From contig JBLWFJ010000001.1 in assembly GCA_048320885.1 (NCBI GenBank), positions 1,605,642-1,669,641 of the forward strand: a DNA stretch of 64,000 nucleotides. Reading direction: 5' to 3'. This document shows positions 17,398-63,411 of the stretch, piece by piece. Made by a program: the position numbers and the translations under genes. The DNA is from Nannocystaceae bacterium ST9 (GTDB lineage Bacteria > Myxococcota_A > Polyangia > Nannocystales > Nannocystaceae). Every line of letters starts with the position of its first letter. Within the stretch, counting starts at the first letter, position 1. The notes under the pieces were generated by a model, which was given only the letters and a program-made list of their open reading frames with translations, searched no databases and had not been told where the DNA came from.

Positions 17398-17757
17398 GTG
17401 CTCGACTCGGTTCGCCCGCGATCGACCGGCCAGGCCGACGACCACGCGGCCGACGATCGAGCCTTGCGCTGCAAGCTGTGCGAGCGCGAGGTCGCTCGGC
17501 TCGCCGATCGGGTCTCGATCGGCAGCGGCGAGCTGCACACCTTCGTGAATCCGCGAGGCGAGGTGTTCGAGTTGGTCTGCTTCGCGCGCGCCGAAGGGGT
17601 CGTCGCGCGTGGCGAGGCGACGCTCGAGTTCACCTGGTTTCCCGGCCACGCGTGGCGATTTGGAATGTGTCGAACCTGCGGCGCGCAGCTCGGATGGCAT
17701 TATCGAGGTGATTCGAACTTTTGGGGTCTGGTTCGCGCCTCGTTACATTGGCCTTGA
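17398..17757 (+). CDS. CULT-domain protein (bacterial cereblon-like)
   Basis: CKLCEREV ... HTFVNPRGEVFE ... TWFPGHAWRFGMCRTCGAQLGWHY ... FWGLVRASL. The alignment to cereblon's thalidomide-binding CULT domain is near-colinear ([24 protein letters not shown]), including the tri-tryptophan cage and both CxxC pairs. Confidence 0.8.
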   Translation: MLDSVRPRSTGQADDHAADDRALRCKLCEREVARLADRVSIGSGELHTFVNPRGEVFELVCFARAEGVVARGEATLEFTWFPGHAWRFGMCRTCGAQLGWHYRGDSNFWGLVRASLHWP

Positions 17758-17780
17758 TCCGCTGGAATTCATCACGCATG

Positions 17781-17807
17781 GCGCAATCTCCCGCGGGAGA
17801 TTCGACG
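17781..17807. repeat. Solo copy of the palindromic element GCGCAATCTCCCGCGGGAGATTCGACG (core 18-bp perfect palindrome)
   Basis: Sits in the convergent intergenic gap between the CULT gene and the HAD hydrolase gene. 31 nt are identical to the copy at 60671..60704. Confidence 0.7.
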
Positions 17808-17827
17808 TCTCTGCGCGCGGGGATCGT

Positions 17828-18442
17828 TCACCCCTCCAGCAGCAGTGGATGATCCAACAATTCGGCGAGCCGCCGAATGTCGCCGCGCCCGCGCGGATCG
17901 ACATGAAGCGCCCGCATCCCGGCCTCGCGAGCGCCACGAACGTCGTCGTGCCGGCTGTCGCCGATCATGATCAGCTCGTCCAGCCCCAGCCCCAGCCGCG
18001 CCGCGGCGTGCTCGAAGATCGCCGGCTCCGGCTTGGCCATGCCGACGTCGCACGAGAACACCAGCACGTCGAAGTGGCGATCGAGCCCGAGCTCGAACAC
18101 CGGCCGCTTGTAGGGCGCCGCGAGGTTGGAGAGCAGCGCGAGCTTCAGCCCACGCTCGCGGGCCCGCTCGAGCGTGGCGACGCAGCCTTCGACGAGGTCG
18201 ACCGCGGCGAGGCCCTCGGCGAGCAGGCGATCGAAGTGCTCGGGCGGCGGACCCCAGCGGGCTTCGAAGTGCTCGCGAAACGCGGCGAGCGTCGGGATCG
18301 GCTGGGTCAGCGCGGCCCGTCGGGCGCGTCGCCACGCCCAGGGCGGCAGGGTCTTGTAGATGAGCTCGCGGTAGGCTCGCCAACCCTCGCCGCGGGTGAC
18401 GAGCGTACCGTAGAGATCGAAGACGAGACCGCGGACCGGCAT
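17828..18442 (-). CDS. HAD-family hydrolase
   Basis: Motif I VFDLYGTLV, motif III K, motif IV IGDSRHD. Start at internal ATG MPVRGL. Upstream ORF text is junk. Confidence 0.75.
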   Translation of the reverse strand: MPVRGLVFDLYGTLVTRGEGWRAYRELIYKTLPPWAWRRARRAALTQPIPTLAAFREHFEARWGPPPEHFDRLLAEGLAAVDLVEGCVATLERARERGLKLALLSNLAAPYKRPVFELGLDRHFDVLVFSCDVGMAKPEPAIFEHAAARLGLGLDELIMIGDSRHDDVRGAREAGMRALHVDPRGRGDIRRLAELLDHPLLLEG

Positions 18443-19055: not shown

Positions 19056-22000
19056 TCACGGCGCGGGCGCGAACATCCGCGCGAGCTTGGCCTCGACCGC
19101 GACTCGAACCGGGTGGCTGGCGTCGATCCGTTGAAGCAGGGCGCTCAGCTCGGGCAACACCTGGCTGCCGGCCATGACTTGTCCGGTGCCGAACAGACTG
19201 GCGACGTAGCCGGGGCCGGCCTGGACCTGCTCGAAGGGCAGGTCGGCGTCGCGGGCAGCCTCCCAGGCGTCGCGCGCCCAGACCAGCGCCTCGCTCGGCT
19301 GCTTGCGCGCGAACACGTCGAGCTCGGCGAGCAGGATCAGACTCGGGATCGTCCGCGGCGTTCGGCGCGAGCCGAAGAGCTGGGTCTCGGCGGCGATCGA
19401 CGCGTGCAGCAGGCCGTGCGCCTCGTCGACCCGGCCGCGATGCACGAGCAGGGTCGCGAGCGTGTGCATGGTCATGGTCACCTCGGCGTGCACGTCGGTC
19501 GCATGGATCTCGCGCTTGATCGCCAGGCTCTCGCGCAGCAGCGACTCGGCCTCGTCGAAGCGAGCTTGGCCGAGCAGGGCGCTGGCCAGGCCGTGCAGGG
19601 TCGAGGCGACGTCGGCGTGGCGACGGGTCGCGAAGATTCGAACTTGCAGCTCGAGGTTGGCGCGGTAGCAGGCCTCGGCCTCGTCGTACTTGCCCTGCGC
19701 GAGCAGGGCGTTGGCCAAGCCGTGCGCGACCGCGGCGAGCTCGGGATGATCGACCTGGCCGTAGGCTCGCTGCTTGATCGCCAGCGCCTCGCGGGCGAGC
19801 TGCTCGGCCTCGGGCGCCCGCCCGCGATGAAAGGCGAGGTTGGCCAGGCCGGCGAGGCCCGCCGCGATGTCGGCGTGCTCGCGCGAGCCGTGCACGCGCT
19901 CGAGGATTGCGATCGACTCGCGATAGGCGGCTTCGGCCCGGTCGTACTCGCCCGATCCAGACAGCGCGTTGGCGAGCCCGTGCAGGGACGAGGCGACATG
20001 CGGGTGCTCGCGGGTGCCGAACACCCGCTGCTTGACGACGATGCTCTGCTCGAACGCCGCGATCGCGTCGGCGTACTTGCCTTGGCAGTCGAGCACGTCG
20101 CCGAGCCCTCGCAGCACGGTCGCGAGCGAGGGGTGATCTTCGTCGCCGACCAGCGAGCGCAGGATCGCGGCGGCCTCGCGATAGTCGGCCTCGGCCTCGC
20201 CGAGCTCGCCGAGCTGAGCCAGCGTGTTGGCCAGGCCGTGCAGCGCGAGCGCGACCTCGGGGTGCGCGTGCCGACCGAAGCCCTGCTCGATCTTGGCGAT
20301 CGCCTCACGATAGTTGGTCTCGGCCTCGCGCAGCTTGCCTTGCCGCAGCTGGGCCGACGCGAGCCCGGCCAGCGCGATGCCGAAGTCGGGGCGAGCCTGC
20401 AGACCGAGGCGCTCTTCGATCGCCAGCGCCTGGCGATACTCGGCCTCGGCCTCGCCGTACTTGCCTTGCCCGAGCAGGATGTTGGCCAGACCGGCGTGCG
20501 AGATCGCCAGGTCGGCGGGGCTCTGCCCGGCCTCGCCGGCCAGCGCGATCGATCCGCGAGCGTGGACCTCGGCCTCGCGGTAGCTGCCCATCGACTGGGC
20601 CGCGGCGCCGCAGTGGTGCAGCCAGGTGTCGCGCTGCGCGAGCGGCCAGTCGACCTCGCGCAAGCCATCGAGGAACTCCTTGCGCAAGCGGTAGAGCCCG
20701 GCTTGGTGCATGGTCGACGAGATCGCGATCATCACCCGCTCGGCGCCCTCCCACTGCTCGGCGGCGAGGTAGTGGCCGAGCGCCTCCTGCAATCCGGCGA
20801 GGTCGCGCTCGAGCATGCCGCACTGCTCGCGATGTCGACCGAGCAGCGCGCGACCGGACTTGGTCCAGGCCGGGCGTCCGGCGAACTGCTTGCCGACCGA
20901 CTCGCGGACCAGCGAGTGCAGGGCCCACGCGTCCTCGCCCGCGAAGCGACCGAGCAGACCGAGCGCGGCCAGGCGGTCGTCGCCGCTGCCGAGCCGCTCG
21001 ATGATCGCCCGCGGGACCGGCCGCTGGATCGCCGAGCACTCGCCGAGCAGGGCGAGCTCGTCGGGCGCGAGACAGGCGATCAGGCTGCCGAGCGCGAGCC
21101 GCTGCTCGACCTTGGCCCCGAGCCCGGCCAGCGCGGGATCGAGGTAGGCCGCGCGCATGATCTCGACGTCGCCGTCTTCGTCGAGCGGCGGCGCGCCCGG
21201 GAGCTTGCGCAGGCTGATCAGGCCGTTGATCCAGTCGACCGTGCCGGGGTGACCGTCGATCCGCTCGGTCAACTGCTCGCGCAGCGGCTCGGGCAGGCGT
21301 TGAAGCGGGTGCTTCCACGCGGTCATGCGATAGATCTCGGCCTTGCTGCACGGCGGGATCGACTCCCAGCAGCCGCACTCGCCGGCCGGCAGGTGGCGCG
21401 AGGTCATCAGCAGGGTCGTGTCGCCCTCGATCTCGCGCGCGAGGCAGGCGAAGAACCCGACCAGCGCCTCGTCGCGCCACTCGACGCCGCGCTCGGAAGA
21501 CGCCGCGCTCGCCTGCATCGACTCGAGGTTGTCGAGGTAGAGCACCCCGCCGCGAGCCAGGCCGAGCAGGAGTCGAGCGAGCGCCTGCGGGCGATCCTCG
21601 GCCCGGTCGAGCGCCTCGAGCCGCGCGTCCCAGTCCGCGGGCTTGCGCGGATGCTTGCCGATCACGCGCCGAACCAGGCCGAGCAGCCAGACGAAGGGCG
21701 TGGTTCGAGTGGCCTGCTCGACGTAGTCGCCGATCGGCAGGGCGATCACGTCGCCGGCGTCCTCGCTGCAGATCAGCGCGAAGCGGGTCATGGTCGTGGT
21801 CTTGCCGAGCCCGCCGAGCCCGTGGAGCCCGAGCGCTCGCTCGCCTCGCTTGCGGAGCTTGCGAAGCCGCGCGAGCAGCCGGCGACGACCGATGAAGCCG
21901 TGCTCGAGCACCGGCAGGCCCTCGGCGCCGGCCAGCTCGATCCGCTCGGGTCGCAGCACGTCCTCGAGCTGCTTGGTCTGGCGCAGCTTGCCGGCGACCA

Positions 22001-40829: not shown

Positions 40830-42377
40830 GTGCCCCTGGTCGACGTGCTCCTCGACCCCGACGCGTTCGGCGATCCCGATCGCCTGCGCCAAGCCGCCGC
40901 GCGCCAGGCCAAGATCCCGCTCGGCCAGGTTCGTCACGTGGTCGTCCGCAAGCGCAGCGTCGACGCGCGGCGCGGGCAGGTTCGGATCCGGGCGCAGGTC
41001 GAGGTGCTCACCCACGACGCGCCGCCCGAGCCTCTGCCTCGACCCTGGCCGCTGGCCTCGCTGACGGGCGAACCGAGGGTCGCCGTGATCGGTGCAGGCC
41101 CGGCCGGACTCTTCTGCGCGCTGGCCTTGGCTCGCGCCGGTGTGCGCTCGCTGATCCTCGAGCGCGGTCAGCCGGTCAGCCAGCGTCGGCGCGACGTCGC
41201 CGATCTCAGCGCGCGCGGGATCCTGCACGCCGAGAGCAACTACTGCTTCGGCGAAGGCGGAGCCGGGACCTTCAGCGACGGCAAGCTCTACACGCGCGCC
41301 GACAAGCGCGGGCCGGTCGACGAAGTGCTGCGAGCCCTGGTCGCCCACGGAGCGCCGATCGATCTGCTGGTCGACGCTCGCCCGCACATCGGCACCAACC
41401 GCCTGCCGGGCGTGGTCACCAGCCTGCGTCAGCACCTCGAGCAAGCCGGCGTGCTCGTCCGCTTCGGCGCGCGCGTGACTCGACTGTGCACGCACGAGGG
41501 CGCGATCGAAGGCGTCGAGCTCGAAGGTGGCGAGCGGATCGACGTGCCCGCGGTCGTGCTCGCGACCGGCCACTCGGCGCACGACGTGGTCCGCTTCGTT
41601 CGTGAAGCCGGCGCGCAGGTCAGCTTCAAGCCCTTCGCGCTGGGCGTGCGGCTCGAGCATCCGCAGCCGGTGATCGACGCGATCCAGTATGGTCGCTGGG
41701 CCGGACATCCCGTGGTCGGCCCGGCCAGCTATCGCCTGGTCCAGAAGGTCGGCGACACCTCGGTGTTCTCGTTCTGCATGTGCCCCGGCGGCCACATCGT
41801 CCCGGCCGCGACCGAGCCCGACGGACAAGTCGTCAACGGCTGGAGCCCCTCCTCGCACCGCGGTCGCTTCGCCAACAGCGGGTTCGTGGCCGAAGTCGGG
41901 CTCGCGCAGCTGCACGAAGCCGGCCTCGATCCCAGCGATCCGCTCGCCGGCCTCGAGCTCCAGCGTCGCTACGAGCGAGCCGCCTACGACGCGGGCGGCG
42001 GGGCCTTCGTCGGTCCCGCGCAAGGCCTGCTCGACTTCGTCGCCGGCCGCACCAGCGCGTCGCTGCCCACGTGCAGCTACCCGCGCGGCGTTCGACCAGC
42101 GCGACTCGACGAGCTGCTCGGTCCGCTGGCCTCGCCGATCCGCGACGCGCTGAAGCAAGTGGCCGCGGTCATGCCCGCGTTCATGACCGCCGATGCGCTC
42201 GCCGTCGGCGTCGAGAGCCGAACCAGCTCGCCGGTTCGAATCGAGCGCGACCGCGAGACCCTGCAATCGCCGACGCTGCGCGGGCTCTATCCCTGCGGCG
42301 AAGGGGCCGGGTTCGCGGGTGGGATCATGTCGGCCGCGCTCGATGGCATGCGGATCGCAGACGCGATCGCGGGCTGA
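40830..42377 (+). CDS. FAD-dependent oxidoreductase (COG2509-like)
   Basis: Rossmann dinucleotide motif VAVIGAGPAGLFCALALARAG. Confidence 0.8.
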   Translation: MPLVDVLLDPDAFGDPDRLRQAAARQAKIPLGQVRHVVVRKRSVDARRGQVRIRAQVEVLTHDAPPEPLPRPWPLASLTGEPRVAVIGAGPAGLFCALALARAGVRSLILERGQPVSQRRRDVADLSARGILHAESNYCFGEGGAGTFSDGKLYTRADKRGPVDEVLRALVAHGAPIDLLVDARPHIGTNRLPGVVTSLRQHLEQAGVLVRFGARVTRLCTHEGAIEGVELEGGERIDVPAVVLATGHSAHDVVRFVREAGAQVSFKPFALGVRLEHPQPVIDAIQYGRWAGHPVVGPASYRLVQKVGDTSVFSFCMCPGGHIVPAATEPDGQVVNGWSPSSHRGRFANSGFVAEVGLAQLHEAGLDPSDPLAGLELQRRYERAAYDAGGGAFVGPAQGLLDFVAGRTSASLPTCSYPRGVRPARLDELLGPLASPIRDALKQVAAVMPAFMTADALAVGVESRTSSPVRIERDRETLQSPTLRGLYPCGEGAGFAGGIMSAALDGMRIADAIAG

Positions 42378-42403
42378 GACAGGGCTGAGATAGGGCTGAG
42401 ATA

Positions 42404-42426
42404 GGGAGACCGCCCGGCGGTCTCCC
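42404..42426 (+). terminator. Putative intrinsic terminator hairpin after the oxidoreductase gene
   Basis: Perfect 9-bp inverted repeat GGGAGACCG-CCCGG-CGGTCTCCC, 27 bp after the stop. Preceded by three GGGCTGAGAYA direct repeats. No U-tract, which is common in high-GC genomes. Confidence 0.35.
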
Positions 42427-43506
42427 CCTCGAGCTTCGCTCGAGGAACCCCCTCTTCTCGGCTCTGCCTACGTGGGGCATTGCGTGGTTCCCCTGCTCGG
42501 GCCGTCTCGCCCTCGCGGGGAATGGACAGCGGGTTCGCTTCGCTCCCCTTGCTTCCGCTTCGGCGACGGCTCGTCGCTTTTTCTTTGCGGGAGGTCGGAC
42601 AGAGAAACTTGGCCCCATCGCCTGGCCGCTTGTCATTGCTGGGTTTGTCGTGCTTTGCACGATTTTTCCCACGCCTTCTCAACCGATGTTGGAACTGTCG
42701 AGTGGGCCGGACATTGGAATGCCGACCGGGGATCCAACCGCGACACCTACGCCCCAAGGCGGATGCAATCCTGAGCAGCATACACGCGTCGCATCATTCA
42801 GTTTCGGGCTCTCGCTGCTCGGCGAGCGCCTGGAGGCCGCGATGGCCCTCTGCTCATTCTTCGAACGCGTTACAGTGATCAGTGTGGTCGCGTGAGCGCG
42901 ATGGCTCCACCCGCTCAGCTTGGACTCGACTTGACATTCGCACGCATCAATGATATGATTCATGCGATGGTCGATTGTCTGGAATCCATCGAACACCTCG
43001 CCCGGCAGATCGCTGAACTCGCTCGCTGCATCGATACGGTCAAGCACGCTTGGCTCCGGCGAATCCGTGAATTCGACGCCCGCAATGGTTGGGCAGACAC
43101 GGGCTGCGTCTCGATGGTCGCGTGGCTCTCGTGGTGGACGGGCACCAGCAACAAGACGGCCAGCGAGCATGTCCGTATCGCCCGGGCGCTCGGTGAGCTG
43201 GCTTTGATCGATCAGGCATTCGCAGCCGGTGAGCTGACCTATTCCAAGGTCCGCGCGCTCACCCGCGGCGCCACGCCGGCCACCGAACAAACCCTGCTCG
43301 ACGTTGCCACGACCGCGACCGCCAGCCAGCTCGACAAGATCGTCGCTGGATTGCGGCGAGTCCGAGTGTACGCAAATCCCGAGCAAGGCGGTGGCGAAGC
43401 GCCGCGCCGATTCGCCCGCTTCACCGAGACGCCGGATGGCATGGTTCGAATCGTCGCTCAGGTCGGGCCCGAGGAGGCGCTCGTCCTGCAGGCGGCAATG
43501 GACGTG

Positions 43507-43533
43507 GCGCAATCTCCCGCGGGGGATTCGACG
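43507..43533. repeat. Palindromic element copy (GCGCAATCTCCCGCGGGGGATTCGACG) inside the HNH ORF
   Basis: Encodes AQSPAGDS. One mismatch from a perfect palindrome. Confidence 0.7.
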
Positions 43534-43555
43534 GCGCCCCGCGCGGCCAACGACC

Positions 43556-43580
43556 CGCAATCTCCCGCGGGAGATTTCGG
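43556..43580. repeat. Palindromic element copy (CGCAATCTCCCGCGGGAGATTTCGG) inside the HNH ORF
   Basis: Encodes PQSPAGDF. Core AATCTCCCGCGGGAGATT is a perfect 18-bp palindrome. Confidence 0.7.
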
Positions 43581-45103
43581 GTCCGACCAAGCCGACGCGC
43601 TGGTCGCCGTCGCGCGCGGCTATCTCGATCGCAAGCCGACCACGCGCGGCACCGGTTGCGAGCTGATCATGATGACCACGCCCGAACAGCTCGCTCACGG
43701 CCCCGAGGGGATCGGTGGATTCCTGCGCGATGGCACCCCGTTGCCGCTGCACGTGGCCCGAATGCTGGCCTGCGACGCCTCGCGGGTCGACGTGAGCGTC
43801 GGCGAGTCGGGTGAGATCCTCGACGTCGGCCGCTCGCGTCGAACCATCCCCACGGGGATCGGTCGCGCGCTGACGCTGCGCGACGGTGGCTGTCGCGTGC
43901 CGGGCTGCGGGCGCTCACGGCATCTGCAGGCCCATCATGTCGAAGCATGGGCAGAAGGTGGGGAGACCTCGATCTCGAACCTCGTGCTGCTCTGCCCCGG
44001 CCACCACGGCTTGGTCCACGAGGGCAAGCTGCACGTCGAGGTTCGGGCGGGCAAGCTCGAATTCATCAATGCCCACGGTCTGACCATCGAGCCTACGCCG
44101 AACCACAGCATCGACCCCGAGACCGTCGCCGCTTGGCTCGACGCTGCCGAGCCCCCGGGCGAGCCGCCGATGGCGTGGGACGGGAGTCGGCTCGACCTTC
44201 ACGAGGTGATCGGTTGGATGATGCTGTCCGAAGGATTTCGAGCGGACGTGGGCGCGCGGGGATGATTGCGCAGGGCTCATCTCGGGCCTTCTCGAGGGCA
44301 TGCTCGCCTGGTCAGCTCGGGCGTGGATCCGCCTCGCCTACGCCCTCTGACCAACGAAGCGCGATCGCCCGCTCGAGTCGAAGTCGGCCGCGAAGCGCTG
44401 GGGTCAGGAGCGGACCTGTTCCAACACGGTCGGCCCCCAACGTCGCGGCGCAAACAGGTCTCAGCAAAAACAACCAGGGAGGCCCCCGGCATGGTGGCCT
44501 CCCCGTCGCTTCGAGCGGTTCCGGTTCTCTTGTTTCGAGGCTCCCGCAGCGCCTCGGGGTCCGTTGTCGCGTCGTGGATCGCGGGCCGACGCGGTGGTCG
44601 ATGGCTTCGACCGAGTTGCTGCCGGGGCAGAGCCCCGACGACTCGACTCTCGTCGAGTGGCGAGCTCGCGCTCGCGTCAGGAGTGTGCGTCCGTCGAGGT
44701 CGGCTCGAGACTGGCTCGGGAGCGCCTCGACTTCAGGGTGGCGCCGCGCTGGGCGGGCGCCGGTCCCGGGCTAGGAGGGTCCTCCTTTCGGGGGTTGAGC
44801 CCGATGGTTGCAAGTAGGGGCTTGGAGCGGACGTCGTGATTCGATCATGCTCACCTCCTGTTGCCGGGTGCCTGAAGCGACACGCCGATCGTAGCAGCGT
44901 CCGTTCGCTTCGCTCACTACTAATTTTTAGGGAGGCCCTTCCGCGGGCCTCCCCCGGGCCGGCAGAGCCGTCCCGGGTCCTCCTCCTCGCAGGCCCTTCG
45001 GGCTTGCTCGCTTCGCCTTCGCTCGCTCGGTCCTTCAGCCACGGTTCAATTTCGCGACGAGTCGGTGGCGACTCTCGCGTGGAGGGAATTCCTTTGGCCG
45101 GCT

Positions 45104-46228
45104 TCAGCGCCCGAGCAGGGTGTCGAGCAGGCCCTTCTTCTTGGGCGCGACGGTCTGGCCGAGCTCCTCGGCGAGCGCCCGCAGCTTGTCCTCTTGCTCG
45201 GCGTTGAGCTTCTTGGGCACGCTGACGTTGACGCGGACATGATGGTCGCCGCGCGAGCGACCGCGGGTCTCGAGCACGGGGATGCCTTGGCCTCGCCGGG
45301 TCAGGATCGTGCCCGGCTGCGTGCCCGGGTCGATGTCCAGCTCGGTCTCGCCCTCGAGCGTGGGGATGGTGACCTTGGTGCCCAGCGTGGCCTGGAACAT
45401 CGAGATCTCGAGCTCGCTGACGATGTCGTACTCGTGCCGCTCGAAGCGAGGATCGGCCTCGACGCGCAGAACCACGTAGAGGTTGCCGGGTGGACCGCCC
45501 GCGCTGCCGGGCTGACCAGCGTTGGGGATCCGCAGGGTCTGACCGTCGTCGACGCCGGCGGGGATCTTGACGCTGAGCTTGGACTCGCGCTGGACCGAGC
45601 CGCTGCCCGAGCAGGTCTTGCAGGGCGACTCGATCGTCTCGCCGCGACCGCGGCAGCGCGGGCAGGTGGTCTGCACGCGGAAGAAGCCCTGGCTGTGCAC
45701 GACCTGGCCGTGGCCCTGGCACTCGCGACACTTGGTCGGCGAGGTCCCGGGCTCGGCACCGCTGCCCGAGCAGGTCTCGCAGTCGACTCGCCGCGGCACG
45801 TTGATCTCGCGCTCGCTGCCCTCGACCGCCTCGAGGAAGGGGATCTCGAACTCCATCTTGAGGTCGGCGCCGCGCTGCGCTCCACCGCGCCGTCGCCCAC
45901 CGCCACCGCTGAAGCCGAGGTTGCCGAACAGGTCGCCGAACAGGTCGCCGAAGTGGGCGAAGATCTCTTCGGTGCCTTGGAAGCCCTGGAAGCCCGCGCC
46001 GCGCGGACCTTCGTGGCCGAACTGATCGTAGAGCCGACGCTTCTGATCGTCGCTCAGCACCTCGAACGCCTCGGCGCACTCCTTGAAGCGCTCTTCGGCG
46101 GTCGCGTCCCCCGGGTTGCGGTCGGGGTGGTACTGCATCGCCATCTTGCGATAAGCGCGTTTGATGTCCACCGCGGAGGCATCGCGCGCGACCTCCAGGA
46201 CCTCGTAGTAATCGCGTTTTGCGGACAC
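45104..46228 (-). CDS. dnaJ: Molecular chaperone DnaJ
   Basis: J-domain HPD motif (YHPDRNPGD), G/F-rich linker, four CxxCxGxG zinc-finger repeats, conserved C-terminal domain. Confidence 0.9.
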
Positions 46229-47134: not shown

Positions 47135-47229
47135 CGGAAGCGCACAGGAATCGAACCTGCCCGAGACGCTCGTCGCGTCTCACACCGGTTTTGAAGACCG
47201 GGGGCCGCACCAGCCGGCCATGCGCCTCC
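47135..47229 (-). tRNA. selC: tRNA-Sec (selenocysteine, anticodon UCA)
   Basis: The minus-strand sequence is near-colinear with E. coli selC: 8-bp acceptor stem (GGAGGCGC / GCGCTTCC, one G-U), D-arm GGCCG-GCUGGUG-CGGCC, anticodon loop CUUCAAA, 7-bp long extra arm GAGACGC-GACGA-GCGUCUC, T-arm GCAGG-UUCGAUU-CCUGU, discriminator G. No CCA is encoded. Confidence 0.8.
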
Positions 47230-59452: not shown

Positions 59453-60655
59453 ATGAGCAAGTCCGTCCGCAAGCTGCCTGGCCACGTGCGTGCACGCCTG
59501 CATCGCCAGCTGGCCCAGGGCTGGCAGCGGGCGGTGTTCGCCAGCCCACGCAGCGACGAGGGCTCGCGCGACGAGCAGGTGGTCGAAGGCCCGGGCCCGC
59601 TCGGCGACGAGGCGGCGTTCGAGCCCGCGTTCGCCGACCTGCTCGCCCGCGCCGAGCAGGCCGCCGGCGAGGGTCGGGTCAAGCAGACCTTCGTGATCGA
59701 CGAGCGCCGCCGGCTCGAGCTCGACGCTCGCCACGGCCAGATCAAGGCCCGCACGCTCGACGACGCGACCGTCGACAAGATCATGGGCGGCAAGCAACGC
59801 GTGCTGCGACCCGATCGCAGCGCCGCGCTCTTGCAGGCGATCGGCATCATGAACGCCGACGCGACCATCTCGGCCCGCAACGCCAAGAAGTACAAGCAGG
59901 TCAACCACCTCGTCGAGCTCTGCCGGCCGACCTGGGAGAAGATCGCCGCCGGCCGAACGATCGACGCCGCCCACCCGCTGCGGATCGTCGACCTCGCCTG
60001 CGGCAACAGCTACCTGGCCTTCGTGCTGCTCGAGGCCCTGCGGCTCGCCGAGCTGCCCGCCCGCCTGCTCGGCGTCGACCTGCGCGACGACGTGATCGCC
60101 AGCAGCCGCGAGCGAGCCGCCGCGATCGGCTTCGCCGAGCAGAGCGAGTTCGTGGCCAGCAAGCTCGAGGCCCTCGACGCCGAGCGGCTGCGAGCGAAGC
60201 TCGGTGGCCCCGTAGACCTCGCGCTGGCCCTGCACGCCTGCGACACCGCGACCGATGCCGCGCTCGCGCTGGCGATCGCCTCGGGGGCCGCGGCGATCCT
60301 CGCCGTGCCCTGCTGCCAAGCCGAGCTCGCGCGACAGCTCGCCGACTCCCCGACGCTCGCCGAGCTGCTGGTCCCGGCGATGGTCGAACATGGTCTGCTG
60401 CGACGGAGCCTCGGCGAGCTGCTCACCGACTCGCTGCGGATCGAGCTGCTCGAGGCGTGTGGGTACACCGTGACCGTGCTCGAGTTCGTCGACAGCGAGC
60501 ACACGCCGAAGAATCTGCTGATCCGCGGGCATCGCAAGCACTCCGGGAAGGTCGAGCCCGGGCGCTGGGGTATCGCTGCGGTCGGCGAGCGGTGCAAGCG
60601 ATTGGGGGTCGAGCCGGCGCTGCTTCGGCTGCTGCGGGCGATTCAGGCCGGCTGA
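59453..60655 (+). CDS. Class I SAM-dependent methyltransferase domain protein
   Basis: IVDLACGNSYLAFVL motif I. 400 aa. Start at ATG MSKSVRK. Confidence 0.7.
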   Translation: MSKSVRKLPGHVRARLHRQLAQGWQRAVFASPRSDEGSRDEQVVEGPGPLGDEAAFEPAFADLLARAEQAAGEGRVKQTFVIDERRRLELDARHGQIKARTLDDATVDKIMGGKQRVLRPDRSAALLQAIGIMNADATISARNAKKYKQVNHLVELCRPTWEKIAAGRTIDAAHPLRIVDLACGNSYLAFVLLEALRLAELPARLLGVDLRDDVIASSRERAAAIGFAEQSEFVASKLEALDAERLRAKLGGPVDLALALHACDTATDAALALAIASGAAAILAVPCCQAELARQLADSPTLAELLVPAMVEHGLLRRSLGELLTDSLRIELLEACGYTVTVLEFVDSEHTPKNLLIRGHRKHSGKVEPGRWGIAAVGERCKRLGVEPALLRLLRAIQAG

Positions 60656-60677
60656 GCTCGCGTCGGTTCAGAACATG

Positions 60678-60704
60678 GCGCAATCTCCCGCGGGAGATTC
60701 GACG
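60678..60704. repeat. Palindromic element copy GCGCAATCTCCCGCGGGAGATTCGACG
   Basis: Identical to the solo copy at 17781..17807. Confidence 0.7.
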
Positions 60705-60725
60705 CATCCTCGCCGCCAACGATCC

Positions 60726-60750
60726 ACAATCTCCCGCGGGGGACTATGGC
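60726..60750. repeat. Palindromic element copy CACAATCTCCCGCGGGGGACTATGG (degenerate)
   Basis: 48 bp downstream of the preceding copy, the same spacing as inside the intact HNH ORF. Confidence 0.6.
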
Positions 60751-60922
60751 TCCGACCAAGCCGACGCGCTGGTCGCGGTCGCGCGAGGCCATCTCGAACG
60801 CAAGCCGACCACGCGCGGGACCGGATTCGAGCTGCTCATGATGACCACGCCCGAGCAGCTCGCCCACTGCCCCGAGGGGATCGGTGGATTCCCGCGCGAA
60901 TCGATCGTCTCGCATGATCATG

Positions 60923-61641
60923 TCACCCCTGGCCCGCCCATCCACGCAACACGACGGTTTCGGACACGATCCCAGATCCATCGAATCCTTCCGAACAATC
61001 GGGTTCGGTCAAGACCGCCCCCATGACGTTCTTCGGGAGCCCACGAATGCCCGCCAAACCACATCGCGTGAACTTCGTATTCTCGAAGAACATGGCGTCG
61101 AAGTCCGCTCCTCGCAGATCACTGTCGGCGAAGTCCGCGCGCGCCGCGTTCGCCGAGCGAAACGAGCACTCGTGCAATCGGCACTTCGTGAAATCCGATC
61201 GTTTCAACTTCGCATTGTCGAATCGACAGTCGACGAAGATCGACTCGAAGAACATCGATTTCGTGAGATCAGCACGTGAGAAGTCGACTCGCTCGAAGGT
61301 CGAGCCACTCGCGCCCAAGCTCTGGAGGCCCGAACCTGCAAAGTTCGAGTCAATCACATCACACTGGTCCATGCGAGCATCCTGAAGGAAGCAGCGCTCG
61401 AATGCACAGCCATCGAATCGACAGCGACGAAATTTTCCATCATTGAATTCGACCCCGCGAAACACGATCGCTACAAACTCACAGCCGATGAACTCAGCGC
61501 CAATCAGATTTGTGTCGGCGAGGGTCGACTGACTAATCCTTCGATCTCGCAGCAAGAACTGAACACCATCGGGTTTCCCCATGACCCAACGCTGATGGGA
61601 TTCGAGCAGTGAGGTTCCGAAGAACTCTTGATCGACTGACA
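60923..61641 (-). CDS. Pentapeptide-repeat protein
   Basis: Repeats of A(D/N)LxxxxF-type pentapeptides (RADLTKSMFFESIFVDCRFDNAKLKRSDFTKCRLHECSF...). Start is uncertain: ATG near 61641 (MSVDQEFF), coupled to the upstream stop, or an upstream GTG at 61822. Low GC3. Confidence 0.6.
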
Positions 61642-61643
61642 TC

Positions 61644-62252
61644 TCAGCTGTGACCTGACTCGAATCGGACCGCCCCGGTCCGGCGCCAGCCGCGGCAGGG
61701 TGAAGACGCACCAACTTTCCATATGACCAGAACGTCGTCGTCTCGATGGTAGCGAAAGAATTGATCAGACGCTTCATGGTTCGCGCTCTTGTCGCCGAAC
61801 CGTGCGATGAACGTGGGATCACGCAAATCGGCCTGCCTCACCGCCTCGGTCTTCCAACCGGCCTTGAACGCCCAGCCCGCGGCGCTCCGCTCGACATGCA
61901 CGACGAAATCCCGGGCTGGAAATCCAAGAAATTCGCCGATGTCGTTCAATTTATAATTGTATGACGGATGAACATCCGCGCACGTCACATAAAATTCAGC
62001 TCCACATTTCTCGGTCTCCATATCCGGGGTGAGAGGTGCCAACCATCGCGGTTGTTGATGAACGATACCCCAAACAGCGACATCATGACCAATTCGTTCG
62101 ACATACCCAGCGAATTGCTCATGGAACGAGAGCCATACATCGAAGCACCGGCCCGCGGCCTGCAAAATCGTCTCGACCTTCCTGGTCGAGACTGCGGAGA
62201 ATCGCTCGAGCGTGGCGAGGTATTCGATGGCGGTCGGTGTCATGGGTATCAT
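61644..62252 (-). CDS. Immunity-like protein, paralog of 62776..63411
   Basis: Shares blocks with its paralog: FHEQFAGYV / FHERYAGYV, TCADVHPSYNYKL / ACADMHPSHDFRL, GEFLGFP / GKFLGGP. Low GC3. My coordinate read near its stop is off by about 1 nt. Confidence 0.55.
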   Translation of the reverse strand: MIPMTPTAIEYLATLERFSAVSTRKVETILQAAGRCFDVWLSFHEQFAGYVERIGHDVAVWGIVHQQPRWLAPLTPDMETEKCGAEFYVTCADVHPSYNYKLNDIGEFLGFPARDFVVHVERSAAGWAFKAGWKTEAVRQADLRDPTFIARFGDKSANHEASDQFFRYHRDDDVLVIWKVGASSPCRGWRRTGAVRFESGHS

Positions 62253-62259
62253 GGATCAG

Positions 62260-62769
62260 TCATGCGGTGGGAGCATTGTTTGCTGGATCCGGCATCTGCC
62301 AACCGTGAGGTCGTTCAACGAACTCCATGAGATCGATGTCGATGTCGATGACCCTCCAACCCTTGCGTCGGCGCCGTTGCTCGAGAAGGTGCCAGTCTCG
62401 GTGTGTTGGCATCATCCGAAACTCTTCGGTGCGCTCGCCCCTCGAACTCCACGCGATCCGAAAGACGCAAAAATCGCACTCCCAGTACGCATCGGACTTC
62501 GGCCTTCCGTCTTCATACCATTCCTTTGCCGGACCGTTGCGGAGGCCCTTGAAAAAGAAGACCTCCGACTTCAACCGACCGTCATGATACCATGATCGAA
62601 AGGGTCCATGTGGAGCCCCCCACGTGTATCCCGCAAGGCCGATCAAATGGCCAGTCTTCTCGTCGCGCTCGTAGGCCATCCCCGAAAAGGGTTGGCCATG
62701 ATGGAGCATATCACTCGAACCATCCTCGGCGGTATCGAGTTCATCAAAATCGATCTCGAGCATGGACAT
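62260..62769 (-). CDS. YwqK-family / MORN-repeat immunity (antitoxin) protein
   Basis: MORN-variant repeats (GPFRSWYHDGRLKSEVFFFKGLRNGPAKEWYEDGRPKSDAYWE). Clearly low GC3. Confidence 0.7.
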   Translation of the reverse strand: MSMLEIDFDELDTAEDGSSDMLHHGQPFSGMAYERDEKTGHLIGLAGYTWGAPHGPFRSWYHDGRLKSEVFFFKGLRNGPAKEWYEDGRPKSDAYWECDFCVFRIAWSSRGERTEEFRMMPTHRDWHLLEQRRRRKGWRVIDIDIDLMEFVERPHGWQMPDPANNAPTA

Positions 62770-62775
62770 CCTGGG

Positions 62776-63411
62776 TCACTCGCTCGCGTGGAGCCGAACC
62801 CACCCATCGCGCAGCTCCTGGTGCTCTCGGTCGTCGGCGATCAGGTAGGTCTCGTCCTTCAGATACGACGTGTACTCGTCCGACGCCGCGTCGATCCTCC
62901 GCATCGTCGACCTTCCGAGGATCTCGGCGCGCAACTCGGGATCGCGCCCCTTCACCATCACGACGTTCTCGACCGCATGGCCCTCGCAGAAACCCCAGAC
63001 CGCCGCGAGTTGCTCGATGAACACGTCGAAGGAGGTCGTGGGCCCGCCGAGGAATTTTCCGTCGTGGCGCAGCCGGAAGTCGTGCGAGGGGTGCATGTCG
63101 GCGCAGGCGATCGCCCACTTGCCCTCGCGCGACCAATCGAAGACCCGCGGCTGAAGTGGGTCGAGCCAGGTCGGATGCTCGTGAACGAGGCCGAGCACGC
63201 AGAGTTCGTCCAGCTCGAGCACGTATCCGGCGTAGCGCTCGTGGAAGTCTAGCCAAGCCGGAAACACGGGGTATCCGCGAGCGTGGAGCAGCCGCTCCAC
63301 TTCGGAGGTGGGGAGGAAGGAATCGCGACGCTGAAGCGCGAGCCAGTCGATTGCTGCCTTCGAGAGCATGTTCGCCTCCGATTCTACGACGAGCCCCCGC
63401 CCGGTGGCCAT
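62776..63411 (-). CDS. Immunity-like protein, paralog of 61644..62252
   Basis: See paralog. Overlaps the 3' end of the toxin ORF by about 28 bp. Confidence 0.55.
   Translation of the reverse strand: MATGRGLVVESEANMLSKAAIDWLALQRRDSFLPTSEVERLLHARGYPVFPAWLDFHERYAGYVLELDELCVLGLVHEHPTWLDPLQPRVFDWSREGKWAIACADMHPSHDFRLRHDGKFLGGPTTSFDVFIEQLAAVWGFCEGHAVENVVMVKGRDPELRAEILGRSTMRRIDAASDEYTSYLKDETYLIADDREHQELRDGWVRLHASE

Follow-up and report, generated by a model that had tools for sequence, protein, structure and literature searches.

Genes coding for DUF222 proteins, also called 13E12 genes, are common in Actinomycetota, and Mycobacterium tuberculosis has 19 of them, located at break-points of large inversions. 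ParB, Noc and KorB bind perfect palindromes of 13–16 bp as dimers, and parS lies inside Bacillus subtilis spo0J. To our knowledge, no cis-acting site has been described for DUF222/13E12 genes. The DUF222 genes of M. tuberculosis were reported to be more than 400-fold enriched at inversion break-points and to be induced by DNA damage (PMC13157036). The half-sites of consensus parS are TGTTTCAC and GTGAAACA, and those of the Noc-binding site (NBS) are TATTTCCC and GGGAAATA (PMC7383237). We analyzed a stretch of 64,000 nucleotides from the myxobacterium Nannocystaceae bacterium ST9 (contig JBLWFJ010000001.1, positions 1,605,642 to 1,669,641; hereafter the window). It contains an intact gene with a DUF222 region fused to an HNH nuclease, and short palindromes are embedded in this gene, in two relics of other copies and in or near most of its relatives. 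Our most confident conclusion is that these palindromes are cis-acting DNA sites that co-evolve with the element.

The open reading frame (ORF) from 42892 to 44265 matched DUF222 (PF02720; 80.2 bits against a cut-off of 24.4, E = 2e-22, profile positions 5–306 of 306) and HNH (PF01844; 30.1 bits against a cut-off of 21.4, E = 5e-7). A preliminary description of this DNA had called it a REP13E12-like DUF222-HNH element. Both Pfam matches agreed with this, and at least 37 annotated DUF222 proteins in ST9, on three contigs, supported a multi-copy element of the 13E12-repeat type. The ORF boundaries given there were too long at the 5' side: the mechanical ORF opens at a GTG at 42892, and the start was taken as the ATG at 42967 because homologues begin at MVDCLE. 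The low GC content at third codon positions (GC3) held in comparison with three neighbouring genes (0.79 versus 0.87–0.92). The residues of the CxxC...HH...N...CxxHH...H pattern, which comprise the zinc ligands and the catalytic His and Asn, were intact, and the best sequence and fold matches of the C-terminal part in the PDB were the HNH domains of IscB, McrA, TagI and Cas9. About 32 of the ST9 DUF222 proteins belong to the subfamily of the window gene and are roughly 90% identical. A second ST9 subfamily has about five proteins (56% identical), with VSAET or ASAET in the linker, not SPAGD. The high copy number in ST9 indicated a highly repeated, presumably selfish gene, like the mycobacterial 13E12 repeats.

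The limits of the element were deduced from copies in differing contexts, which have DNA in common only from a TTGACA box to 0–11 bp past the stop codon. Homology with the related elements L122, L123 and L006 begins at CTTGACATT (42930) and stops about 11 bp past the stop codon. In the ST9 paralogues P0136 and P0002, N- and C-terminal extensions of the ORF match window DNA from about 42925 to about 44288. The common DNA begins about 50 bp before the ATG in the window subfamily and about 250 bp before it in another. The sigma-70-type promoter at this edge matched 11 of 12 consensus positions (one site found, 0.1 expected), and its TTGACA box is kept at the 5' edge of related elements. The ATG lies only 8 nt downstream of the promoter, and the mRNA is therefore probably leaderless. 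These features indicated that the element presumably consists of its own promoter and one ORF, i.e., a compact single-gene selfish element of the DUF222-HNH (13E12-repeat) kind.

The 18-mer AATCTCCCGCGGGAGATT was sought across the window with up to three mismatches, and the chance level was obtained from dinucleotide shuffles. Five matches were found versus 0.03 expected. The five sites of the preliminary description were thus recovered, but only three of them were perfect palindromes, and the other two carried one and two mismatches (Table 1). A 27-mer said to mark the sites, GCGCAATCTCCCGCGGGAGATTCGACG, was exact only at 17781 and 60678; it had one mismatch at 43507 and was absent from the second member of each pair. 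The spacing within pairs, given before as about 49 bp, was 48 bp in the intact gene and 46 bp in the 60.68-kb fragment. The window lineage has the half-sites ATCTCCCG and CGGGAGAT. Folded as a single-stranded DNA hairpin, site 2 of the intact gene had an energy of -11.8 kcal/mol (z -2.7). Inspection of the sequence found no T-run, as an intrinsic terminator has, after any of the five window sites. A terminator scan of 42300–45200 found other hairpins and not the palindromes, and Rfam and tRNA scans gave no match at the three palindrome loci.

We then surveyed relatives of the gene. The survey set consisted of 80 metagenomic DUF222-HNH loci among the matches listed (35–65% amino-acid identity), supplemented by loci from a Myxococcales metagenome-assembled genome (MAG), a JGI contig and two Rhodococcus-type genes. 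The metagenomic relatives were mainly distant (35–46% identity), with no close copies among the matches listed. Nearly every surveyed gene had one to five perfect zero-loop palindromes of 16–26 bp, almost all centred on CCGCGG, and one relative had a 40-bp perfect palindrome within its coding sequence. Of 87 DUF222-HNH elements, 78 had a CCGCGG-centred site pairing at 7 or more of 8 arm positions, either inside the coding sequence or no more than a few hundred bp away, and 60 of the 87 had a perfect one. Perfect CCGCGG-centred palindromes of at least 14 bp numbered 69 in 100 kb of DUF222-HNH coding sequence versus 30 in 530 kb outside. About 20 of these 30 were within roughly 700 bp of a DUF222-HNH gene. 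Family-type palindromes were 12-fold denser in the gene, and about four in the 530 kb of flanks were more than 1 kb from a gene. Perfect palindromes of at least 16 bp were observed 80 times versus 7.4 ± 2.8 expected from synonymous-codon shuffles with the protein sequences fixed. In the same survey, plasmid and phage collections held very few DUF222-HNH genes, with no annotated mobile-element contexts, and none of the best 120 matches to a Rhodococcus query protein, chosen to reach the 13E12 proteins of M. tuberculosis, came from Mycobacterium.

The sites recur at a few positions: upstream of the promoter region, in the linker (about amino acids 200–245), in a VSAET loop before RRLACDA (about amino acids 265–300), after the HNH domain, and just beyond the stop codon. 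Sites behind the HNH domain are translated in other frames (CFRGNN, AVPRNR, TRFRGNV), and some sites lie in non-coding 5' or 3' flanks. The same DNA is therefore read in different frames, indicating that the conserved object is the DNA and not the peptide. Site position and sequence were kept between proteins that are 35–45% identical.

The variation of the sites was symmetric. The arm variants by lineage were TCTCCCG (window), TTCTCCCG, GTTTCCG (the commonest), GTTCCCG, TGTTCCG, GCTTCCG, GGTTCCG and TCTTCCG, and in all of them each arm remained the exact reverse complement of the other. In close relatives of the window gene, CAA...GAT was changed to AAT...GAA, an A-T to T-A swap. The palindrome grew to 22, 24, 28 and 40 bp in different relatives. 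Variants of the centre, CAGCTG and CTGCAG, remained symmetric and still coded for VSAET, as synonymous changes had occurred in pairs; three intermediates with a single mismatch were also observed. The variation was also concerted. Within an element, 85% of site pairs agreed at 8 of 8 half-site positions versus 19% between elements, a value reached by 0 of 2000 label permutations. All sites of an element thus share one variant, as would be expected if they were read by a single factor that the element itself encodes. A recognition-helix position in AA[R]E.VRVARAL was R with GTTTCCG or GTTCCCG, Y with TGTTCCG or TCTTCC, and S in the TCTCCCG lineage of the window. In protein sequences of the second ST9 subfamily (P0027, P0029 and P0031), this helix reads AAAREHVR. 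The putative site of that subfamily is GTTTCCGCGGAAAC; its linker motifs and helix, as read from the protein sequences, point to two orthogonal site-reader pairs in the ST9 genome.

A candidate reader was found in the protein itself. An AlphaFold2 model was built from an 88-sequence alignment. The N-terminal helical domain had a per-residue confidence (pLDDT) of 80–98, and the linker that carries the palindromes was below 50, indicating disorder. The best structural neighbours of the N-terminal domain were DNA-binding domains of the ParB/Spo0J/KorB type, KorB among them, with local Foldseek probabilities of 0.95–0.99 against ParB/Noc-DNA complexes. A profile alignment, although insignificant, had a consistent register, in which WLxWRxG...AAREKVRVARAL...GELSYSKVRALTR...TAxHVERLV of DUF222 was paired with the ParB helix-turn-helix LAKRLGKSRPHIANHLRLL...GTLSMGHGRTLL...LNVRQLEQLI. 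An hmmsearch of PDB sequences found no ParB chain at E up to 10. The N-terminal ParB/Srx CTPase domain (ParBc) gave no match at E up to 10 either, and the N-terminus is a single long helix. With no CTPase domain, the protein is therefore not a canonical ParB, and only the DNA-binding module is alike. The sites are alike too. The commonest family site, with the half-sites (T/C)GTTTCCG and CGGAAAC(A/G), has GTTTC at the same distance from the dyad as parS and the Noc-binding site. The site of one lineage, GATGTTTC-CGCG-GAAACATC, matches the crystallised parS 20-mer everywhere except at its four central bases. The predicted fold and the sites suggest a ParB/KorB-type reader in the N-terminal domain of DUF222, with the palindromes as the sites that it recognises, and we hold this reading with moderate confidence.

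Table 1. Coordinates of the DUF222-HNH element, its palindromes and its relics in the window.
Feature	Position	Strand	Details
Intact DUF222-HNH element, approximate extent	42925-44290	+	both ends uncertain by about 20 bp
Sigma-70-type promoter	42931-42959	+	TTGACA-17 nt-TATGAT, extended -10 TG
DUF222-HNH coding sequence	42967-44265	+	432 aa, 100% identical to MFV8750273.1 of Nannocystaceae bacterium ST9
N-terminal helical domain	43084-43371	+	about aa 40-135; predicted ParB/KorB-like helix-turn-helix; putative recognition helix KTASEHVRIARAL, then GELTYSKVRALTR
Palindrome site 1 of the gene	43511-43528	.	AATCTCCCGCGGGGGATT, 1 mismatch (...GGGGGATT); encodes QSPAGD in the disordered linker
Palindrome site 2 of the gene, full extent	43552-43583	.	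GACCCGcAATCTCCCGCGGGAGATTtCGGGTC, 32-bp palindrome with one mismatch; encodes PQSPAGDFG
Palindrome site 2 of the gene, core	43559-43576		exact AATCTCCCGCGGGAGATT, perfect 18 bp
HNH nuclease motif	43903-44019	+	CRVPGCGRSRHLQAHH...SNLVLLCPGHHGLVHEG; PF01844
Linker relic of 42 bp with solo palindrome	17779-17820	+	about 88% identical to 43505-43546; repeat family D10
Solo palindrome	17785-17802		exact AATCTCCCGCGGGAGATT
Internal fragment of another element copy, 224 bp	60676-60899	+	88-89% identical to 43505-43730
Fragment palindrome 1	60682-60699	.	exact AATCTCCCGCGGGAGATT, perfect
Fragment palindrome 2, degenerate	60728-60745	.	2 mismatches

The two relics in the window begin at the same point. 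The 224-bp fragment, which the preliminary description had correctly taken for an internal piece of a second copy, runs from the linker to "...GIGGF", begins about 6 nt before palindrome 1 and lies outside any intact gene. Its left edge, CATGGCGC, 6 nt left of palindrome 1, is common to the solo relic. The fragment lies between a methyltransferase gene with its stop at 60655 and a pentapeptide-repeat gene with its stop at 60923 (minus strand), which are convergent and both confirmed by Pfam. The solo relic is flanked by a plus-strand ORF that ends at 17757 and by a haloacid dehalogenase (HAD) hydrolase gene on the minus strand that ends at 17828. The convergent gap described for the solo site stood on the side of the hydrolase, which Pfam confirmed; the plus-strand ORF had no Pfam match, and convergence there is ORF-based only. 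The earlier idea that the solo copy marks an excision was not supported, as both relics are internal gene fragments with flanking linker coding sequence and not footprints of element ends. In ST9, the truncated copy P0127 stops exactly at palindrome 2. Upstream of the intact elements L123 (9830–9950) and L006 (7050–7180), rearranged and partly inverted fragments of older copies with a 28-bp or 18-bp palindrome were observed, and their arrangement suggests nested or adjacent insertions near existing sites.

Two further observations concern the right end of the 224-bp fragment. At its junction (60887–60902), element and flank together create the quasi-palindrome GATTCCCGCGCGAATC with 7 of 8 pairs, which could be a coincidence. 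The fragment also stops about 5 codons short of where other lineages hold the VSAET palindrome, maybe by chance.

We propose the following mechanism. The protein would have two modules on disordered linkers, an N-terminal ParB/KorB-type helix-turn-helix DNA binder and a C-terminal HNH nuclease. The palindromes would be lineage-specific, two-fold-symmetric sites in double-stranded DNA (dsDNA), related to parS and the Noc-binding site, that travel with the element. A dimer of the element's own protein would bind them through the ParB-like domain, and the HNH nuclease would thereby be anchored at the element's copies. DNA nicked or broken at the sites would be repaired from sister copies or mis-repaired. 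Such repair could preserve the family and keep its copies alike, trigger rearrangements among them and give rise to truncated relics that end at a palindrome. The sites would be written into the ORF because the element has almost no non-coding DNA and a cis site must travel along. They appear to be placed in its tolerant parts. In the window lineage this is the disordered linker (QSPAGD), where an embedded site would cost least; other lineages also use the VSAET loop, the C-terminal tail or sequence directly flanking the gene.

We give a probability of about 0.5 to the whole picture, namely a multi-copy selfish element whose ParB-like domain reads its own embedded palindromes and whose HNH domain acts there. 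The earlier suggestion of recognition by the element's own protein gained support from the co-variation by lineage, the ParB/KorB-like domain and the parS-like sites; cutting at the palindrome and its suggested use as a homing site stay conjectural. That the HNH domain cuts at or near the palindromes, with the consequences above, is speculative and the part of which we are least confident. Break-induced events at the sites would be favoured by the common relic edge CATGGCGC, the end of P0127, the fragments at L123 and L006, the break-points and DNA-damage induction of the M. tuberculosis genes, and the LexA boxes and RecA-NDp-like promoter of actinobacterial relatives.

Several points weigh against this picture. 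The mean pLDDT of the model was only 68.8. Alignment with hhalign to one Spo0J sequence was not significant (E = 0.26 and 0.52), and the Pfam HTH_ParB profile matched only below threshold, in 5 of 88 members. In the window lineage, the half-site (ATCTCCCG) departs from the parS-like GTTTC arm, and the correlation between helix residue and half-site is confounded by phylogeny. Nine of the 87 elements lacked a good site, and elements differ widely in how many sites they have and where these lie. Perfect symmetry could come partly from template-switch correction of quasi-palindromes, with no selection needed. Palindromes are fragile with or without nuclease action and are hotspots for deletion and template switching. 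A maximum chi-square analysis of 23 ST9 paralogues, at the protein level and with low power, found no recombination break-points at the linker; 6 of 253 pairs were significant, all at amino acids 340–380, where variability rises, and none at the palindromes. Cleavage or recombination at the sites is conjecture, and a self-cutting nuclease would gain nothing obvious unless repair copied the gene. Finally, some lineages have sites close to the promoter, as would suit operators.

The sites could be autoregulatory operators only, in which case the ParB/KorB-like domain would repress its own gene, from an operator or as a roadblock within the gene, the HNH domain would act elsewhere, and the relics would be products of ordinary decay. 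In several lineages a site shortly precedes the promoter, and L061, L072, L086 and L103 have sites at -63 to -248. Two Rhodococcus genes that are only 45% identical have CGTCCCCGCGGGGACG in common at -90/-100, and KorB, which is among the best structural matches, is a ParB-family repressor. We nevertheless consider this explanation unlikely. The window lineage has no site near its promoter, and its only two sites lie some 545 and 595 bp into the gene, counted from the start; for regulation, actinobacterial copies already have LexA boxes and a DNA-damage promoter; and operators leave unexplained the sites after the HNH domain, those just past the stop codon and the relics that start at a site.

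The sites might instead serve another factor, such as a host ParB-like protein, a recombinase that attaches there, or a CCGCGG restriction-modification enzyme. The attB sites of serine integrases are imperfect palindromes and REP13E12 hosts the phiRv1 attB; in addition, two relatives adjoin type I restriction-modification genes. This is rather improbable, as the site variants follow the lineage of the element and not the host, the two ST9 subfamilies differ in both linker motif and recognition helix, and the element encodes one protein only, with a fold of the palindrome-binding type. The phiRv1 attB idea was dropped: the attB core (GGTTGGCCGTGG) is unrelated to the palindromes, and the site was not shown in the papers found. 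The two relatives in question have the DUF222-HNH gene directly beside the type I genes, with hsdR, hsdM and hsdS upstream in L121 (1487–9905) and an hsdR-like gene downstream in L122 (11429–14548).

The palindromes might also act as RNA hairpins in the mRNA, in stability, translational pausing or processing. Positions in the 5' leader, the coding sequence and the 3' tail could all be transcribed, and the arms show compensatory changes. However, the symmetry runs through the dyad, and co-variation includes the positions at +/-2 (CCGCGG to CAGCTG or CTGCAG), which a hairpin would place in its loop. The near-palindromes had no excess of G.U-compatible mismatches, and the predicted stability of the 18-mers was ordinary (z -0.7 to -2.7). 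These three features argue for a two-fold-symmetric dsDNA site over an RNA hairpin, which we regard as very doubtful.

An absence of function is already disfavoured and, in our estimate, highly improbable. The SPAGD or VSAET peptide would then merely happen to be palindromically encoded, template-switching would keep the palindromes perfect, and the relics would reflect palindrome fragility. The motif does lie in a variable, tandemly duplicating and disordered linker, and palindromes are known hotspots of deletion and template-switching. The 10-fold excess over synonymous shuffles, the occurrence of the same sequence in other frames and in non-coding flanks, the conservation across proteins 35–45% identical, and the concerted evolution of within-element sites at distant positions stand against it.

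A generic genome-wide repetitive extragenic palindrome (REP) or a terminator hairpin with no link to HNH genes is an extremely improbable reading. In its favour, the same 18-mer occurs in a REP of an Acetobacteraceae MAG (about 28 copies) and in Firmicutes terminators, and both window relics lie in gaps apparently between convergent genes. Those matches, however, are unrelated elements in unrelated phyla, Myxococcota relatives have their sites in or next to DUF222 genes, the 530 kb of flanks held only about four family-type palindromes more than 1 kb from a gene, and the window sites have no U-tract. The tie to DUF222-HNH genes assumed in the preliminary description was borne out by the survey densities (69 in 100 kb of genes versus 30 in 530 kb outside). 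An exact search of genome contigs with the 18-mer returned mostly the Acetobacteraceae REP and the Firmicutes terminators, and two relevant matches, both in one Myxococcales MAG. In the Acetobacteraceae MAG SMAG_U5148, the 18-mer forms the apex of a REP-like hairpin of about 75 bp, ctgtcattgcgaggccgcttggccgaagc-AATCTCCCGCGGGAGATT-gcttcggccaagcggcctcgcaatgacag, in about 28 copies (among the loci L001–L038), often at contig ends.

Self-read embedded palindromes would bear on the whole family. A broader proposal, which we put forward tentatively, is that DUF222-HNH elements from Mycobacterium to myxobacteria may form an unrecognised class of selfish nucleases. They would combine a ParB-type palindrome reader with an HNH cutter, and each lineage would carry its own parS-like target of 16–20 bp in the gene. 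Damage-induced self-targeting would drive gene conversion and the 13E12 inversions of M. tuberculosis, and the family would be a natural library of orthogonal palindrome/reader pairs. If the embedded palindromes are recognised by a ParB-like reader fused to a nuclease, DUF222, which is still annotated as of "unknown function", gains a function, the recombination-hotspot behaviour of DUF222 genes gains a testable mechanism, and it is explained how a one-gene element with almost no non-coding DNA carries cis sites, namely in a disordered linker. The many naturally co-varying protein-site pairs could be used to study the evolution of ParB-type specificity, and possibly for engineering. The DUF222-HNH/13E12-repeat family is known; the family-wide embedded parS-like sites are, as far as we found, undescribed. 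The literature searched made no mention of palindromes in DUF222 genes or of a ParB-like DUF222 fold, within an incomplete coverage that leaves room for an earlier description.

Other features were observed in the window and in the surveyed loci. The intact element sits between an oxidoreductase gene and dnaJ, at apparently convergent gene ends; both products match ST9 proteins exactly (MFV8750272.1 and MFV8750274.1, respectively; 6.98-Mb contig). The GC content was 0.56–0.58 at 61000–63000 versus about 0.70 elsewhere, beginning right beside the 224-bp fragment, and the pentapeptide-repeat gene there (60923–61822, minus strand) had a GC3 of 0.65. This region may be horizontally acquired DNA, judging from its composition. 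A tRNA-Sec gene with the anticodon TCA was found at 47135–47229 (minus strand) by ARAGORN and Rfam (RF01852, 75.8 bits), indicating that this myxobacterium uses selenocysteine. Six copies of a periodic repeat of roughly 129 bp (family D1; 61–71% identical) lie within a coding region at 19518–20515, which probably encodes a protein with repeats like the tetratricopeptide repeat (TPR). Another inverted repeat with a loop of 5 nt, (A)GCTCGGCGA-NNNNN-TCGCCGAGC(T), recurs among the relatives; it encodes ELGExIAEL at about amino acid 39 in about a dozen loci, including L071, L084, L093, L099, L101 and L117, and is absent from the window gene.

Compared with known systems, the element is closest in architecture to the REP13E12/13E12-repeat family of M. 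tuberculosis and other Actinomycetota, to which it belongs by all features tested. Both have DUF222 plus HNH and are multi-copy and dispersed, and one difference is the host, here a myxobacterium of the Nannocystaceae. Actinobacterial relatives have DNA-damage control elements, as reported for M. tuberculosis (PMC13157036). In the surveyed actinobacterial DUF222-HNH genes, a LexA SOS box of the TCGAAC-N4-GTTCGA type was seen just before the ATG (L124 2805–2914, L125 2906–3001, and upstream in L086 and L061), together with a TGTCGGTR-N8-TAnnnT motif resembling the mycobacterial RecA-independent DNA-damage (RecA-NDp-like) promoter. A CCGCGG palindrome lies about 25–30 bp further upstream of these motifs.

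In fold and site, the closest systems are ParB-parS, Noc-NBS and KorB-operator; parS and NBS have the GTTTC arm in common with the family, in register. Here the site lies inside the gene of its proposed binder, like parS within spo0J. Unlike ParB, the DUF222-HNH protein has no N-terminal CTPase/Srx domain and no ParA partner, is fused to HNH and is a multi-copy selfish gene. The sequence similarity is not significant, the central 4 bp of the sites differ, and the half-site in the window has diverged.

REP-RAYT systems and REPINs also tie a nuclease-type gene to its own short palindromes, which co-vary with the lineage of the gene. The DUF222 sites differ in being zero-loop dsDNA palindromes, mostly within coding sequence and not dispersed (in the 530 kb of flanks), and the RAYT enzyme is an HUH/Y1 transposase, whereas the enzyme here is an HNH nuclease. 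HNH homing endonucleases (I-HmuI, T4 Mob) and type IIP HNH restriction enzymes (KpnI, Hpy99I) likewise combine an HNH core with a DNA-binding module, and the type IIP enzymes read palindromes as dimers, as we propose here. Homing enzymes differ in having long asymmetric targets in the empty allele and not in their own gene. In contrast to type IIP systems, the DUF222-HNH element has no methylase partner, and its cleavage is putative. Rickettsia palindromic elements show that in-frame palindromic DNA is tolerated in surface and loop regions of proteins; they are 100–150 bp long and lie in many unrelated genes, whereas the palindromes here are 16–40 bp long and belong to one gene family.

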